The position numbers were made by a program, and so were the translations under genes. The notes under the pieces are model-generated. The model searched no databases. It saw nothing but the letters and a program-made list of their open reading frames with translations, and was not told where the DNA came from. DNA of 64,000 bases from contig OZ250139.1 in NCBI GenBank assembly GCA_965237405.1, positions 3,781,661-3,845,660 of the forward strand, written 5' to 3'. The DNA comes from Vicinamibacterales bacterium. GTDB lineage: Bacteria; Acidobacteriota; Vicinamibacteria; Vicinamibacterales; UBA8438. Positions 1-12,174 of the stretch are shown here, piece after piece. Positions within the stretch are counted from its first letter, which is position 1, and the number at the start of each line of letters is the position of its first letter.

Positions 1-2
1 CG

Positions 3-419
3 GAGGATGTCTGGACGCCTTTGGTCGCGATTGCGGATGCGGCGGGCGACGAGTGGCCAGTATTGGCAAGACAGGCGGCGACCGAGCTGTCAGGCGAGGC
101 GAATCATCCTGATGGTGATGTCGGCGTGTTGTTGCTGCGAGACATCAAGTCGCTCTGGCCTGAGGGCCAAACGTTTCTTGCAACGGCGGAACTACTACGA
201 CACTTAAACAACTCGGACGAGCAACCGTGGCCGACATGGTGTCGCGGCCATGAGATGACTCCACATGCGCTGTCTCGGATTTTGAAAGAGTTCGGGATTA
301 AACCGACTTCGAACGGTCAGTTTCGCGGGTATCGACGTGTTGATTTTCAGGACGCCTTCATCCGACACAACGTCCTTGTGGGGGACGACCAAAGCGTCAA
401 AGCGTCAAACCCCTTATAA
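3..419 (+). CDS. DUF3631-like protein of an integrated/mobile element (5' end lies outside the window)
   Basis: The frame of ORF 21..419 is open to the window edge. The C-terminal stretch WPTWCRGHEMTPHALSRILKEFGIKPTSNGQFRGYRRVDFQDAF matches my memory of the conserved tail of DUF3631 proteins, which accompany primase/helicase modules of integrative elements. Confidence 0.55.
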   Translation, partial: EDVWTPLVAIADAAGDEWPVLARQAATELSGEANHPDGDVGVLLLRDIKSLWPEGQTFLATAELLRHLNNSDEQPWPTWCRGHEMTPHALSRILKEFGIKPTSNGQFRGYRRVDFQDAFIRHNVLVGDDQSVKASNPL

Positions 420-474
420 AGATTGGGCCAATAAACACAGCCCATTGACACTTTGACGCTTCGGTCCACGATCC

Positions 475-1620
475 CTAGCGGGCTGGTTGATTGGCCTGCT
501 GGCGGTCAGGCGGCATGACGGTAAGTGTCCATGAAACCGGGACCGACACCGGTTCGAAGCAGACCGCGTCGTCGCACGCCTGATAGTCGAGTTGCCCCGT
601 CAGGGTGATCACGTCGACATCGGCAAGCGCCTCGAGCGCTTCGGGCGACGCACCGACAACGGCCTCCTGAGTCAGTCGGAACGGTCGTTGATACACGGGT
701 ACTCGCTCGTCAAGCGGCTCGAAGTGGTAGATCTCCGAGGCGGGGTAGGCTGACGGCTCGGTCTGCACGAGTGGATTGTCTGCGAGACGAAGGGCGATCA
801 CGTAGTAGCCTAGATCGTCCGCGCCCGGCGCGTAGACATGAATGTTCGGATTTGGCTCAATGTCGAGCATCAACGCGATGCGACTGCCTGCCGAGACCTC
901 GGCATTGGTTTGGCTTGACGTGATCACCAGGTGTGGCGTCTCGCCTCTCGTACCCGACACCGGGTTGGTCTCGAGGCTCAGACGCAGCATAATGGTGGCG
1001 GCCGTGTTGCGCTCCCGGTAGAACTCTTCGAAGAACCGCGACGTCACCCGACCCTCGTTGTCGACGACAAACGTGCCGGGGAACGGCGTCCCCACGAGGA
1101 TTCGGTTCGCGCCGAAGACTGAGACGTAACGGGCAACGTCAGCCTTGACAGACGGGTCGTCAGCGTTGGCGCCCAGGCCCTCTTCCGCAACGGTATTCAG
1201 AATGCCGAACGCCCTGATCGCCGCTGAGTGCTCGTCGGAGAGTAGGGGATAGGTGATTCCCACTCGCTCGGCGAAGCTGGCGAGCACCTCTTCCGAGTCG
1301 AAGCTAATCGCAACGACGTTGAGGCCTTGTGCCTCGAGCGCCTCACGTTGTTCTTGCAGCTCCACGAGCTGCGCCTTGCAGTACGGTCACCAATCGGCCG
1401 AGCGATGAAAGACGATCATCGCACCGTTCGAGCCCAGGATCGACTCGCTGGTCCACACCGTGCCGTACTGATCGGGAAGTTTGAAGTCAGGGATCAACTC
1501 TCCGATCTGAGGTCCAAGCGAAGACACGTCGATCTGTTCGCGGGATTCCTGCATCAGAACTGGTGCGGGGCTGAACAGGGCCGCGAGCGCGCAAGCCAAT
1601 ATCACTCGTCGCATGCGCAT
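475..1620 (-). CDS. Secreted thioredoxin-fold redoxin (AhpC/TSA-like) fused to a DsbD-N-terminal-like domain; candidate selenoprotein with in-frame UGA at 1387..1389
   Basis: ORFs 1387..1650 and 475..1365 are in the same frame, separated only by TGA. The read-through gives FHRSADW-U-PYCKAQLVELQEQ, which is the W-C-P-Y-C redox motif with Sec/stop at the first Cys. The N-terminus MRMRRVILACALAALFS looks like a signal peptide. The C-terminal part (YQACDDAVCFEP) resembles the DsbD N-terminal domain. Start at 1620 or 1614 (ATG). Confidence 0.6.
1356..1372 (-). promoter_or_regulatory. Candidate bacterial SECIS hairpin (GCAGCUC-GUG-GAGCUGC)
   Basis: Perfect 7-bp stem starting 14 nt 3' of the UGA at 1387..1389. 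The apical GUG loop lies about 22-24 nt after the UGA. Confidence 0.4.
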
Positions 1621-1711
1621 GATGCTAGTCGAGTGGCTCGTTTTTTCCAACTACCACCACGCCGTCCACTCGGGCTGGAGACGCCCTGAGCTTGTCGTAG
1701 GCTCGAAAGTG

Positions 1712-1870
1712 ATGTCCCTCGGTGAGCAGGTGCAGTTCGTTGCTGGCCAGAAGTCGAAGTTAGGTGGTTCCAGAGTGGTACCACCTAACATGCCGCCTAC
1801 GCTCGCTGAGATGGGCATCGACAAGAAGACGTCGTCGCTCGCGCAGCGGTCGGAGGTGTCTCGATATTAG
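1712..1870 (+). CDS. Small phage/plasmid-type DNA-binding-like ORF or gene fragment
   Basis: The segment KLGGSRVVPPNMPPTLAEMGIDKKTSSLAQR resembles the '...TLaelGIskkqSSraQkLA' motif seen in small mobile-element proteins. The start is uncertain and this may be a remnant. Confidence 0.25.
   Translation: MSLGEQVQFVAGQKSKLGGSRVVPPNMPPTLAEMGIDKKTSSLAQRSEVSRY
1759..1789. repeat. 31-nt near-perfect palindrome GTTAGGTGGT-T-CCA-GAG-TGG-T-ACCACCTAAC
   Basis: Checked by hand: the 10-bp outer arms are perfect, with one T:T mismatch, then a 3-bp inner stem. Confidence 0.85.
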
Positions 1871-1892
1871 CGGTCGGAGGTGTCTCGATGTT
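1845..1892. repeat. Tandem direct repeat, 2 x 24 nt (AGCGGTCGGAGGTGTCTCGATRTT)
   Basis: Units 1845..1868 and 1869..1892 differ at one position (A/G). Confidence 0.9.
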
Positions 1893-1969
1893 ACAGGGTG
1901 GGTCAGCGTAGACGATGCGATATGGGTAACGCGGATTAGCGGATTAACAGTACTTCCACCACAGGAGGT

Positions 1970-2371
1970 CTACCACGGCCGCTTCACCGTGATCGCCGCC
2001 GCGACCTGAATACGTTCGGTGGCTCGCCCGACACTCCGGTCCACCAAACTATTCGCGGCACCGAGGCGAACCGCTTCGCTGGTGGCGTTGGTAACGAGAC
2101 TCTCAAGCTCGGCGACCGCACGTGGTGCCAAGTTCCGCAGGCGTAGCTCAGCCAACTCGACAGCCGCAGCAGCCTTAGCCAGGGCCTGTGGACTCGACCC
2201 GCCGTGGTTCCGACAGACTCGCTGACCTCTTCTCGCGAACTTGTTACAGGGCGCCCCAGCGCGGTTATGTCCGATGCAGAGGCGAGGGTCACGTGGCTGG
2301 ATGTCTGTCACTTCCATGGGGTCACCTGTCTTCATGGGGTCACCTTCATTGAAACGGAAAATGGCGCTCAT
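1970..2371 (-). CDS. Hypothetical protein with a Cys/His-rich motif (CIGHNRAGAPCNKFARRGQRVCRNHGG), probably mobile-element associated
   Basis: 133-aa ORF. The C-x(n)-C...C-x-x-HGG arrangement suggests a small zinc-binding motif, followed by an Ala-rich helical tail. No family was confidently recognised. Confidence 0.45.
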   Translation of the reverse strand: MSAIFRFNEGDPMKTGDPMEVTDIQPRDPRLCIGHNRAGAPCNKFARRGQRVCRNHGGSSPQALAKAAAAVELAELRLRNLAPRAVAELESLVTNATSEAVRLGAANSLVDRSVGRATERIQVAAAITVKRPW

Positions 2372-2420
2372 GTGATGCGGTCGCCTATATAGATGTTAGA
2401 GACCTCGTTGCGGTTTTTGG
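2351..2420. repeat. Direct repeat copy A (promoter plus first codons MSAIFRF of ORF 1970..2371)
   Basis: Manual alignment with 4804..4873 gives 61 of 70 positions identical, in the same orientation. Confidence 0.85.
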
Positions 2421-2545
2421 ATCCGTTCAAAGCGCCGGACGGTGCTAAGCACCACAGGATTTCAAGGTCCGTGGTTACCATGCGGTCTCCATCGAATCGT
2501 ACCAGCGGACCGTCGCCGGCGCTGACTATCTGCTGGTCGTTTGCC

Positions 2546-4678
2546 CTACTCGGCGCGCGGCAGTGCGAAGGCGATGAGCCGTGGGCCGCCGCCGACCGTG
2601 AGCGCGATGTACTGGCGGTCGTCGACCATGTAGGTCATCGGCGTCCCGATGGCCCCGCTTGGTAAATCAATTGACGCCAACTCGTTGCCGCTGGTTTTGT
2701 CGTACGCGACCAGGCGCGGGCCATTGTTCGTGCCGCCGGCTGTAAGGCAGTACAGCAGGAGCGTCTTCGTTAACAGAGGGCCATTGGAACCGTTGTCCCC
2801 ACCAAGTGGTGGTAGATTGAGATGCCGCAAGCGGGGGTGGTTACGGTAGCGATTCCCGTCACCGGTGGGAACCCACCAGAGGTGCTCGCCGGTGTTCATG
2901 TCAATCGCGGTGATCCGCGAGTAGGGCGGTTTCAGCAGGGGTAGCCCCTGTGGCATTCGCGGGCCGATGCTCGTGTACATCGTGGGGCGCCCGGCCAGGA
3001 TGTCCGCCTCTGGCGCGCCGTGCGTGTAGTCGACGGTGGCTCCGAGCGCCGGGTCAGGCGTGTATATCCCCACGACCTGGGCTTGGTTGCGTGACGGAAT
3101 GTAGAGGATGCCGGTTTCCGGGTCCATCGCGGCACCGCCCCAACCGACCGTGCCCCCGGTCGGCGGACGCATGACCGTGCCTCGCGTTACGCCCTCGACC
3201 GGACGATCCAGCGGTGTGAAGAGCGGACCCAGTCGGAACCCCTCGACGGCTTTTACCGCCATCTCTCGAATCTCAGGCGTGAAATCGACTAGGTCGTCAA
3301 GCATGACTCCCTGGTAGTCGAACGGCGCCGGTTTTGTCGGAAACGGTTGCGTGGGTGCCGGCACGTCACCTGGGATGTTGGTCTCTTGCGGAACGGGTCG
3401 TTCCTCGATTGGCCAGATGGGTTCGCCCGTGACTCGGTCGAACGCGTAGACGAAGCCTTGCTTGCTGACCTGGGCGATCGCCTTGATCTCCCGTCCGTCG
3501 ACGGTGACGTCGACCAAATTAGGATGGGTCGCGAAGTCGTAGTCCCAGAGCCCATGGTGGACAGCCTGGAAATGCCACAGCCGCTGGCCGGTCTCGACGT
3601 CGACGGCGATCAGCGTCTCCGAAAAGAGGTTGTCCCCAATCCGATCGGACCCGATGAAGTCGTTCGTGGTCGTTCCGGTCGGCAGGTATACATGTCCGAG
3701 CTCATTGTCTCCGCCGAGCATCCCCCAGACGTTCGCATTCCCCGAGTAGCGCCACGAGTCGTTGAGCCAGGTCTCGACACCGAATTCGTCGGTGCTGTTC
3801 GGGACGGTGTGAAAGTCCCAGGCGTGCTCACCGGTTCGGACGTCCCAGGCACGAACCCAGCCGGGCACCGCTTCCTTCGTGATGCGGCGGTCGGCGACCT
3901 GCGACCCGTGGATGACTTTGTCCCGGACGACGATCGGCGCAGAGAAGATGCCCCAGAGCATGGCGTTCAGATAGTCGCGATCCGCCCGATTGGCCCGCGG
4001 AAGACCGAGGGTCGTGTCGACCATGCCACTGCCGTTAGGACCGAAGTCGGAGCACGGCTGACCGGTCTTCGCCTCGACACAGACGAGGTATCCGGCCCCG
4101 GTGCCCCAGAGGATCCGTTCGTCGTCCAGTCCATCGGTCCAATAGGCGACACCCCGCGCATTCCAGGGCCCGCTCATCGGTGGGGTCCCCTCCTCGTACC
4201 CCTTCGGGTTGAAGACCCAGAGTGTCTCGCCGGTTGTCGCGTCGACTGCGACCCCCTGCCCGAGAGGCGTGTTGAAATAGAGGACGCCACCGACCATGAG
4301 CGGCGTGGCCGTTAGGCGTGATGCAAGCGGCGGGTGACCGGGTCTGTAGAGCTCGGGGTTTTCTTCGACGAGCGATTCGACGATGGTGTCGAGTGGCGCT
4401 GACCACTCACCACCGCCGGGGGTTGATCGGCTGATCAGCGTGTCGACCGATGTCCACTCCCAGGCTATTTCTAGGTCTGCGAAATTACTCGCGCCGATTT
4501 GATCGAGCGGGGAGTACTTCTTCCCACCGATGTCCCCCGCGTAGCTGCGCCACTCCCCATTCGACGTGTCGTAGGTTTGCCAGGGGCCCTGGGAGCCTCC
4601 CGGTTGCGCCTGTGCCACCGGGGCGACGGCTAACAGCGTGAGAGTAAGAAGGACACTGAGCGAGAGAAATCTATGCAT
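2546..4678 (-). CDS. PQQ-dependent (quinoprotein) dehydrogenase, secreted
   Basis: Beta-propeller quinoprotein hallmarks: WRSYAGDIGGKKYSPLDQI, GTVGWGGAAMDPETGILYIP and a repeated W-motif architecture. The signal peptide MHRFLSLSVLLTLTLLAVAPVAQA favours the ATG at 4678 over 4732. Confidence 0.85.
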   Translation of the reverse strand: MHRFLSLSVLLTLTLLAVAPVAQAQPGGSQGPWQTYDTSNGEWRSYAGDIGGKKYSPLDQIGASNFADLEIAWEWTSVDTLISRSTPGGGEWSAPLDTIVESLVEENPELYRPGHPPLASRLTATPLMVGGVLYFNTPLGQGVAVDATTGETLWVFNPKGYEEGTPPMSGPWNARGVAYWTDGLDDERILWGTGAGYLVCVEAKTGQPCSDFGPNGSGMVDTTLGLPRANRADRDYLNAMLWGIFSAPIVVRDKVIHGSQVADRRITKEAVPGWVRAWDVRTGEHAWDFHTVPNSTDEFGVETWLNDSWRYSGNANVWGMLGGDNELGHVYLPTGTTTNDFIGSDRIGDNLFSETLIAVDVETGQRLWHFQAVHHGLWDYDFATHPNLVDVTVDGREIKAIAQVSKQGFVYAFDRVTGEPIWPIEERPVPQETNIPGDVPAPTQPFPTKPAPFDYQGVMLDDLVDFTPEIREMAVKAVEGFRLGPLFTPLDRPVEGVTRGTVMRPPTGGTVGWGGAAMDPETGILYIPSRNQAQVVGIYTPDPALGATVDYTHGAPEADILAGRPTMYTSIGPRMPQGLPLLKPPYSRITAIDMNTGEHLWWVPTGDGNRYRNHPRLRHLNLPPLGGDNGSNGPLLTKTLLLYCLTAGGTNNGPRLVAYDKTSGNELASIDLPSGAIGTPMTYMVDDRQYIALTVGGGPRLIAFALPRAE

Positions 4679-4803
4679 AGAAGAACCCCGTTTCCAGGCG
4701 GCCTTCATCGAATCGTACCATGCGGCCACCATCGAATCATCATAATCTGGGTGTGTGCGGGGGTACCGTTGGGGACACCAAACTAGATCGAATCGTCTCC
4801 ATC

Positions 4804-4873
4804 AAAACGAAAAATGGCGCTCATGTGATGCGGTCGGCTATATAGATATTCGCGACCCCGCCGCGGTTTTTGG
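4804..4873. repeat. Direct repeat copy B (with a 13-codon remnant ORF MSAIFRFDGDDSI, 4783..4824 minus strand)
   Basis: See copy A. This copy keeps the same ATG context but stops after 13 codons. Confidence 0.85.
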
Positions 4874-4894
4874 TTCCTGAGGAAATCGACCGAG

Positions 4895-4920
4895 CAAAAA
4901 AGGCTGACCGGGGGTCGGCT
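4895..4920 (-). terminator. Possible intrinsic terminator downstream of tRNA-Arg
   Basis: Minus strand reads AGCCGACCCCCGGUCAGCC followed by UUUUUU. The stem has one C.A mismatch. Confidence 0.4.
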
Positions 4921-5022
4921 TACCGGGGCCTAAAAGCCACCGAAGTGTGTTGGGGTAGCCACAAAATCCGCCACATTTTTGGTGCCCACTACGACACGGA
5001 AGCAAAAAACCCCTGCAAAGAC

Positions 5023-5099
5023 TGGCGCGCCCTGCAGGACTCGAACCTGCGACCTCCTGGTTCGTAGCCAGACGCTCTATCCAGCTGAGCTAAGGGCGC
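5023..5099 (-). tRNA. tRNA-Arg (anticodon ACG), CCA encoded
   Basis: Folded by hand. Acceptor GCGCCCU/AGGGCGC; D-arm GCUC-AGCUGGAUA-GAGC; anticodon arm UCUGG-CUACGAA-CCAGG; T-arm GCAGG-UUCGAGU-CCUGC; discriminator G then CCA. Confidence 0.95.
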
Positions 5100-11611: not shown

Positions 11612-11897
11612 GGTAATCCGAAGTTAGTGAGATGGTCGACTTATGCGACACCCCGCGCTCGAACGCGAAGCGGGCGGACTTGGAGTCTGGTCTCTCGCAC
11701 GATGACCCTAGAGCTCTTGCTCGCGAAGTCCTCTCGCCTTTGGCGAGCGTCTGCGCAACCGCGCGCCGATGCGGCGCCTCTCTCAATGATCCGTGACGGA
11801 AGAGTCATTGCGACCTATAAGCAGCGCATGTTATTCCATGGCAAGAGTTTTAATCAACCAGGCTACGCCGCTTCGCTCTATGGCCGATATCGGCCGG

Positions 11898-12108
11898 CTT
11901 CGGTATACTCGCCCGGTAGATCGACGTCCCGACGAGCCTGGGAAGTGGGTGCGAATCCCACACGGTCCCGCCACTGTAAGCGGGGAGTCGGACGGCGGAA
12001 AGGTGCCACTGGCGCCCGCACTGTGCTGCAGCGCGTCCACACGCGGAGCATGGGAAGACTCGCCGTTCGGTCAAAATCCGCGAGTCAGGAGACCGGCTTA
12101 TCGGGTGT
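11898..12108 (+). promoter_or_regulatory. Cobalamin (B12) riboswitch
   Basis: Conserved core GGGAAGTGGGTGCGAATCCCACACGGTCCCGCCACTGTAAGCGGGG (B12 box GCCACTG), a second GCCACTG, GGGAAG, and the 3' element GAGTCAGGAGACCGGC. Lies upstream of a BtuD/C/F-type importer. Confidence 0.9.
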
Positions 12109-12174
12109 CCTCTGAGCCACCGCCAGGCCAATCTGCCGGTGGGTAACGGTGCGTGGTCACGCCGAAGGAGGTTC

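Follow-up and report, generated by a model that had tools for sequence, protein, structure and literature searches.

A gene of Vicinamibacterales with a single in-frame UGA very probably encodes a secreted Prx-like 1 selenoprotein with two domains

In this study we have analysed a stretch of 64,000 nucleotides from a Vicinamibacterales bacterium (contig OZ250139.1, positions 3,781,661 to 3,845,660; 'the window' hereafter), with a focus on a minus-strand gene at 1620..475 that is interrupted by one in-frame UGA. We conclude that this is very probably one intact gene for a secreted, two-domain Prx-like 1 (UxxC) selenoprotein that acts by the mechanism proposed below, a reading drawn from comparative analysis of sequences and predicted structures. 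The gene displays a recoding signature, an element that resembles a selenocysteine insertion sequence (SECIS), two folds and four conserved redox residues. Its features are as follows:

475..1620, minus strand: complete coding sequence (CDS) of the predicted selenoprotein, from ATG 1620..1618 to stop codon TAG 477..475, 381 codons including selenocysteine (Sec) 78
1552..1620, minus strand: predicted signal peptide of the Sec secretion type, residues ~1-23, MRMRRVILACALAALFSPAPVLM, with a basic n-region ahead of a hydrophobic h-region, recognised by eye
1042..1506, minus strand: AhpC/TSA (peroxiredoxin/thioredoxin-fold) domain, residues 39-193 (PF00578, E = 4.4e-28; PF08534, E = 3.5e-16)
1387..1389, minus strand: UGA codon 78, predicted to be read as Sec, first position of U-P-Y-C; TGA at the aligned codon in homologs
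1378..1380, minus strand: Cys81 (TGC), partner of residue 78 in the UxxC redox pair; all recovered Sec and Cys forms have it, with the proviso that the pattern used to extract homolog copies itself required Cys81
1356..1372, minus strand: hairpin of the bacterial SECIS (bSECIS) type, GCAGCUC-GUG-GAGCUGC, 7-bp stem and apical loop GUG, identified from its fold, its covariation and its linkage to the TGA
517..951, minus strand: C-terminal beta-sandwich, DsbD/ScsB alpha-like, residues ~224-368, assigned from a model and a PDB match
559..576, minus strand: Cys349-x4-Cys354 (Y-Q-A-C-D-D-A-V-C-F), putative second redox pair, invariant in alignments A1, A3 and A5

Results

One reading frame is broken only by a UGA

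When the minus strand is read in frame from 1620 to 475, the sole interruption is the TGA at 1389..1387, which joins two open reading frames (ORFs) of the same frame, 1387..1650 and 475..1365. An earlier, sequence-only reading of this DNA had described the two ORFs as one frame broken by this TGA alone and had derived from them a product of 381 residues with U at residue 78; its coordinates were all correct, and the product holds when translated from the ATG at 1620. The peptide around the UGA reads ...FHRSADW-TGA-PYCKAQLVELQ, the upstream stretch being GAMIVFHRSADW, and tblastn matches in 80 genomes span residues 1-381 of the joined product. The base 3' of the UGA is C in every one of 83 genome copies of the gene; in bacteria, termination is at its weakest in the UGA-C context. 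Elsewhere in the window TGA serves as the stop codon of 17 of the 36 longest frames, so that the genetic code here is standard and not reassigned. No other frame of the window interrupted by a single TGA was convincing: the remaining candidates resemble off-frame noise in GC-rich DNA.

The UGA is conserved in homologs and gives way to Cys codons

When U was replaced by C, a protein search yielded relatives in the thousands, and Cys homologs exist, as the sequence-only reading had anticipated. The codon itself was followed in two sets of gene copies. The genome set comprises the DNA of 80 loci from species-representative genomes, with 83 gene copies carried by Vicinamibacterales, other Acidobacteriota, Longimicrobiales/Gemmatimonadota and marine Gammaproteobacteria (Pseudohongiella, OM182, SAR86), and the metagenome set comprises 85 gene copies and was seeded with Cys forms. 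In the genome set the aligned codon is TGA in 83/83 copies (80/80 loci), with the frame uninterrupted on both sides, across at least three phyla. Among the 85 metagenome copies, 54 have TGA, 30 have TGC or TGT and one has TTA. The Cys homologs carry TGC/TGT precisely at the UGA codon, where it encodes the first Cys of W-C-P-Y-C, and form Sec/Cys pairs with the TGA copies.

Both halves of the gene behave as coding sequence. There are no stop codons within the 45 codons upstream and the 45 codons downstream of the UGA in 84 copies, and the pairwise divergence at codon positions 1, 2 and 3 in these copies is 0.21, 0.13 and 0.54 upstream and 0.28, 0.25 and 0.57 downstream; the low divergence at the first two positions relative to the third on both sides indicates that both halves are under purifying selection at the protein level. 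In a rough neighbour-joining (NJ) tree the Sec forms are intermingled with the Cys forms; at least 12 switches separate them, and Sec is inferred at the root. Comparison along this tree reveals a Cys form that shares 86% identity with a Sec form and is already without the hairpin, and one hairpin-keeping Cys form whose nearer relatives are Sec forms, not the other Cys forms.

Several individual loci merit mention. The metagenome copy with TTA (Leu) at the Sec codon (L085, position 1238; protein P0006) retains an intact 6-bp version of the hairpin and shares 84% identity with a Sec form; the TTA reflects either an error of sequencing (G to T) or a fresh inactivation. Tandem Sec paralogs are found in a Longimicrobiales genome, which has three copies (L080; TGA at 3159, 4350 and 5658), and in a metagenome-assembled genome (MAG) of a gammaproteobacterium, which has two (L077; TGA at 1851 and 3030), and each of these tandem copies has its own TGA and hairpin. 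Finally, one Cys-form homolog (L081, 1762-4149) lies directly 3' of two genes, one for an extracytoplasmic function (ECF) sigma factor and the other an anti-sigma gene of the NrsF type, which it overlaps at 3001-3004. This arrangement hints at envelope-stress regulation of the Cys form in that lineage.

A hairpin downstream of the UGA is conserved and linked to it

The stem of the hairpin begins 14 nt 3' of the UGA, its loop lies 21 nt 3' of the UGA, and the hairpin alone has a minimum free energy (MFE) of -10.1 kcal/mol. Published criteria for bacterial SECIS elements are a loop of 3-9 nt, a stem of 4-16 bp, a G in the first two loop positions, a distance of 16-37 nt from the UGA and an MFE threshold of -7.5 (PMC13188914, Fig. 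2). In good agreement with the perfect 7-bp hairpin at SECIS distance described from the sequence alone, the element falls within all four published bSECIS rules (3-nt loop; 7 bp; G then U in the loop; 21 nt; -10.1).

The window sequence by itself does not decide between a pseudogene and a selenoprotein; it is comparison alone that lends the hairpin significance. In 84 sequences of Sec forms, of which 69 are distinct, 99.4% of the stem cells are paired. Two stem pairs covary in the 69 distinct sequences: pair 4 is G-C in 48, A-U in 20 and G-U in one, and pair 1 is G-C in 63, C-G in three and G-U in one. None of 500 shuffles matched the observed pairing or covariation, and sliding of the pairing partner abolishes pairing. 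The synonymous third positions in the stem and loop (CUC, GUG, GAG, CUG) are invariant in 83/83 copies, while those immediately outside the hairpin vary freely. The hairpin, scored at an MFE of -7.5 kcal/mol or below, is kept by 49/54 Sec forms of the metagenome set versus 3/30 Cys forms (Fisher p = 8e-14), and Cys forms that encode the identical QLVELQ peptide have lost it via synonymous changes. To judge from these alignments, the hairpin is tied to the TGA and not to the encoded peptide.

Like elements of the bacterial SECIS consensus (the model used in bSECISearch, with elements of the E. coli fdhF type), the hairpin lies directly 3' of the UGA and inside the CDS. In contrast to E. coli fdhF-type elements, it is very small and has neither a bulged U nor an extended lower stem; it has no sequence similarity to that of fdhF, and binding of SelB here is a prediction.

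The predicted product combines a peroxiredoxin-like domain with a putative DsbD alpha-like domain

The layout of signal peptide, redoxin domain and DsbD-N-like domain proposed in the sequence-only reading was recovered by Pfam searches and by inspection, with AhpC-TSA at 4e-28 and DsbD_N weak and below its cutoff. The signal peptide was inferred by reading the sequence and its boundary is approximate; homologs have equivalent N-termini, and residues 1-30 of the modelled homolog P0073 have a predicted local distance difference test (pLDDT) score below 50. The structure of the N-domain was taken from the model of P0073, a natural Cys homolog, and is a confident peroxiredoxin/thioredoxin fold. 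Its best PDB matches are BCP/PrxQ (5epf, E = 5e-12) and AhpE (1xvw), with E from 5e-12 to 1e-10 for the two and template modelling (TM) scores of ~0.78-0.80 over the target. While the fold and the Pfam AhpC-TSA match are shared with BCP/PrxQ and AhpE, the thioredoxin-like W-U-P-Y-C active site differs, and the NCBIfam models for PrxQ, BCP and AhpC score 24-49 bits against cutoffs of 140-272. Given the W-U-P-Y-C centre and these sub-cutoff peroxiredoxin scores, peroxidase activity is uncertain.

The model of window residues 215-381 is a beta-sandwich with a pLDDT of 89.2 and a predicted TM score (pTM) of 0.81. In the PDB this C-domain is matched best by ScsB, an electron transporter of the DsbD family, through its N-terminal periplasmic domain (6c29_A, E = 4.3e-5, probability 1.00); the remaining structure matches are generic immunoglobulin (Ig)-like folds, and E. 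coli nDsbD lies outside the top 50. The DsbD_N match (PF11412) is precomputed for many homologs, and a phmmer search of the C-terminal domain versus PDB sequences gave nothing meaningful. In an hhalign comparison, C349 and C354 align, locally and weakly over 25 columns, with the Cys pair of E. coli DsbD alpha YQGCADAGFCYPP, whose two members are the redox-active Cys103/Cys109. DsbD-type alpha domains exchange disulfides with thioredoxin-fold partners. The window protein appears to share a beta-sandwich with DsbD alpha (nDsbD) and ScsB alpha, and its Cys pair, Y-Q-x-C...C-[FY]-x-P, is a putative counterpart of the one in E. coli DsbD alpha. It differs in Cys spacing, which is CxxxxC in the window protein and CxxxxxC in E. 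coli DsbD, and in domain order: in the window protein the domain is attached to the C-terminal side of a soluble redoxin, whereas the alpha domains of DsbD and ScsB are N-terminal to a membrane beta domain. These likenesses support, without proving, an internal relay from a membrane transporter via C349/C354 and U78/C81 to the substrate.

The family was predicted in 2008

Prx-like 1 was defined in the selenoproteome of the GOS (Global Ocean Sampling) expedition as a broad bin of 225 reads with pfam00578 and a UxxC motif (Zhang & Gladyshev 2008, PMC2398784). The supplementary '#Prx-like 1' reads carry ...FHRSADWUPYCKAQLVELQ..., annotated with U; one of them, JCVI_READ_1599685, reads ...LLFHRSADWUPYCKAQLVELQ...HVYAPG...LDYQACDDAICY and includes the C-terminal motifs HVYAPG...LDYQACDD (PMC2398784). 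The window protein is 59% identical to JCVI_READ_900765 over 263 residues with 0 gaps (E = 2e-120), at least three '#Prx-like 1' reads match it exactly over SADWUPYCKAQLVELQ, and the defining combination of pfam00578 and UxxC is present (PF00578 as above, with U-P-Y-C). By sequence similarity, the window gene belongs to a selenoprotein family already predicted in 2008 and is not new. The selenoprotein interpretation of the sequence-only reading is supported, while novelty and surprise were overrated in it: this very family, C-terminal domain included, had already been placed, with U, under 'Prx-like 1'.

The 2008 study describes the same family and gives no account of this sub-family's C-terminal domain, of its SECIS or of how dominant it is in soil Acidobacteriota (PMC2398784); the window copy further differs from the Prx-like 1 reads in being island-borne in a Vicinamibacterales-like genome. 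We found no published description of the alpha-like C-domain of this sub-family, its SECIS or its prevalence in soil Acidobacteriota, and our literature search for Sec use in Vicinamibacteria/Acidobacteria or for a Prx-DsbD-alpha selenoprotein fusion found nothing specific. Another candidate family from the literature, with three conserved Cys including a CxxC, was rejected, and the window family was filed under Prx-like 1. NCBIfam has no model that the protein matches above its cutoff and none dedicated to the sub-family. The protein shares a thioredoxin/Prx-fold Sec redox motif, with partial homology, with NF040769 (SelL-related), NF041054 (ResA-like WAxxUGC) and NF040737 (PrxU); membership in these was rejected at 55.7, 35.8 and 16.1 bits versus cutoffs of 120, 300 and 270, respectively.

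Public entries are truncated or mistranslated

The best 120 public relatives (P0001-P0120), which reach down to 64% identity, are nearly all ~296 aa long and start at a common internal Val/Met just past the UGA, inside the hairpin loop. Such a uniform length is what gene callers produce when they stop at a conserved UGA, and hundreds more public entries are probably truncated in the same way. In one entry (P0088/L086) the UGA has been translated as Trp, and in a near-identical genome (L169, 5746-6891) the gene caller split the gene into ORFs of 77 aa and 296 aa.

The gene lies on a tRNA-Arg island

In this near-identical genome, on a 2.74-Mb contig, the gene is flanked by a tRNA-Arg on one side and an integrase of the phage type on the other. 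An exact repeat of the final 45 nt of the tRNA-Arg (L169 2300-2344) stands at L169 11148-11192, just past the integrase, and delimits an island of ~8.9 kb (L169 2268-11192). The part of this island inside the window is 1..5099, as the left edge of the window cuts it within DUF3631. The repeat pair brackets the gene and so bears out the suggestion, made from the window alone, that it sits inside an integrated element. The order of the island in L169 is PQQ dehydrogenase, 133-aa ORF, selenoprotein gene, DUF3631, HTH_17, 318-aa ORF and integrase. The full DUF3631 gene there encodes 384 aa and is followed by the HTH_17 and phage integrase genes. In the window, the gene has no neighbours in common with orthologs elsewhere, which is consistent with horizontal acquisition. 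The island features of the window are:

5023..5099, minus strand: tRNA-Arg(ACG), attachment site (attL) of the island (ARAGORN, Rfam)
2546-4732, minus strand: PQQ (pyrroloquinoline quinone)-dependent dehydrogenase, 728 aa, island cargo
1970-2371, minus strand: 133-aa ORF with a Cys/His-rich stretch CIGHNRAGAPCNKFARRGQRVCRNHGG, no Pfam match, also called in L169
21..419, plus strand: DUF3631 gene, C-terminal part, island backbone, cut at the window edge (PF12307, E = 1.7e-28)

Discussion

On the basis of these data we propose the following mechanism, in which dependence on SelB, export, the way the electrons flow and the nature of the substrate are inferred. UGA-78 would not be read as a stop during translation. 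The hairpin would present its G-U-G apical loop 21 nt from the UGA and most likely recruits SelB-GTP-Sec-tRNA(Sec), which would insert selenocysteine. Because of its signal peptide, the product probably acts in the periplasm. There, the U78-P-Y-C81 centre of the peroxiredoxin-fold domain could cycle between a selenol/thiol and a selenylsulfide, and C349-x4-C354 most likely relays electrons between a membrane transporter of the DsbD/CcdA/ScsB type and the U-x-x-C centre. In the cell envelope, this would allow the reduction of peroxides or oxidised thiols by the enzyme.

A number of results weigh against this interpretation or parts of it. As regards the decoding machinery, tblastn with E. coli SelA, SelB and SelD gave no match in the 64-kb window or the fetched homolog loci, ARAGORN found no tRNA-Sec in the window or the homolog flanks, and across the 80 loci there was no conserved operon partner or electron-donor gene beyond lineage-specific synteny. 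As regards the hairpin, the 63-nt region 1392..1330 folds with an MFE of -18.7 versus a shuffle mean of -20.8 (z = +0.79), and Rfam gave no match at the hairpin, either at the gathering threshold over the window or in a permissive search over 1280..1450. The QLVELQ peptide is inherently palindrome-prone in coding, which makes the Cys forms the key control, and three of these (L084, L107 and L135) do have the hairpin. As regards the protein, the canonical peroxiredoxin motif P-x-x-x-T/S-x-x-C is replaced by F-H-R-S-A-D-W-U, the Pfam DsbD_N match (PF11412, residues 239-357) reaches 1.2e-4 and 22.5 bits, below the 25-bit cutoff, the superposition of the C-domain on 6c29_A has a TM of only 0.54 with a root-mean-square deviation (rmsd) of 7 A, and the hhalign probability for the DsbD alpha alignment is 7.7%. 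The full-length model of P0073 has a pTM of 0.50 and does not fix the geometry between the domains.

The alternative named in the sequence-only reading was a private nonsense mutation: a pseudogene in which an ordinary CxxC redoxin recently changed TGC/TGT to TGA, the hairpin being a coincidence of coding for QLVELQ. The window alone cannot tell it from a selenoprotein gene, its fold is no better than that of shuffles, and the three Cys forms with a hairpin could be read in its favour; but the TGA recurs in 135 independent copies, which share 48-84% identity with the window protein and are free of any second lesion, selection is purifying on both sides of it, and the hairpin covaries and is linked to the TGA. 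That the TGAs of the homologs are artefacts of assembly or of translation tables is implausible across 80 independent assemblies. Because the TGA is conserved and both flanks are coding, the codon must be decoded; the 83 genome and 54 metagenome TGA copies exclude a private mutation, and the pseudogene is, in our view, vanishingly improbable. We regard as exceedingly improbable that the locus makes two polypeptides, a 77-aa secreted peptide and a 296-aa protein initiated at GTG 1365..1363 in the hairpin loop, with the hairpin acting in translational coupling. Public gene calls do use this GTG/ATG start in hundreds of homologs; however, the division would break the thioredoxin fold halfway through its active-site motif, and the larger product would lack a signal peptide, whereas the Cys homologs are continuous proteins of 376-385 aa. 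The supposed start is, moreover, a Val inside QLVELQ that is conserved in Cys forms as well; in many Sec forms it is GUC or GUU, which are not start codons, and the frame across the UGA is preserved in all copies.

Two further alternatives accept that the gene is genuine. Read-through of the UGA as something other than Sec, by near-cognate decoding as Trp or Cys or by reassignment as in genetic codes 4 and 25, would fit the lack of visible Sec machinery in the window and homolog flanks and the single public record with W at the UGA codon (P0088/L086). Against it stand the 17 of 36 long window frames that TGA terminates, the placement of the codon precisely on the catalytic Cys of the Cys homologs, a bSECIS-consensus structure that co-occurs with the TGA and decays once the codon is Cys, the spread of carriers over three standard-code phyla, and the classification of the Prx-like 1 family as a selenoprotein by specialists; we hold such read-through to be highly improbable. 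It is also very unlikely that a genuine selenoprotein gene rides as silent cargo on the tRNA-Arg island in a host without Sec machinery, so that only the 77-aa fragment is made. The island is bounded by an integrase and has att repeats, the gene shares no neighbours with orthologs of other Vicinamibacterales, and no sel genes were seen in the window or homolog flanks; yet the ORF, the UGA and the hairpin are all intact in the window, the C-terminal 296 aa are 99% identical in a second assembly, and related Vicinamibacterales genomes have TGA orthologs, which implies that the order is Sec-competent. An intact and decoded selenoprotein gene is therefore the reading that we retain.

This reading turns an apparent pseudogene into a recoded gene, and the comparative signature behind it, consisting of TGA/Cys pairs, a covarying hairpin and decay of the hairpin after Sec-to-Cys switches, is unusually clear. 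It opens no new class, as proteins of the UxxC kind are the commonest and the family was predicted in 2008. UxxC proteins of the thioredoxin/Prx fold are, indeed, the commonest bacterial selenoproteins. Since public entries are truncated or mistranslated and NCBIfam has no model, a dedicated family model would mend annotation in many genomes of Acidobacteriota, Gemmatimonadota and marine Gammaproteobacteria. The gene also points to selenium-dependent redox chemistry in the envelope of soil bacteria that are abundant, and it is an instance of a mobile island carrying a selenoprotein gene. More speculatively, and with the odds rather against it, the sub-family might represent an undescribed architecture, namely a periplasmic selenoenzyme with its own relay domain of the DsbD/ScsB alpha type. 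Such a 'plug-in' Sec reductase or peroxidase would dock on a membrane DsbD/CcdA/ScsB transporter, would be abundant in soil Vicinamibacterales, sometimes in tandem, and would have spread on small tRNA-integrated islands into Sec-competent hosts.

Other features of the window

Two exact 21-nt direct repeats, ATCGAGACACCTCCGACCGCT, lie on the minus strand at 1889..1869 and 1865..1845, 24 nt from start to start. They are ~225 nt upstream of the start codon of the selenoprotein gene and could be an operator or an island-related site. Further along, the window has a cobalamin riboswitch on the plus strand at 11897-12115 (Rfam RF00174, 74 bits, E = 2e-16).

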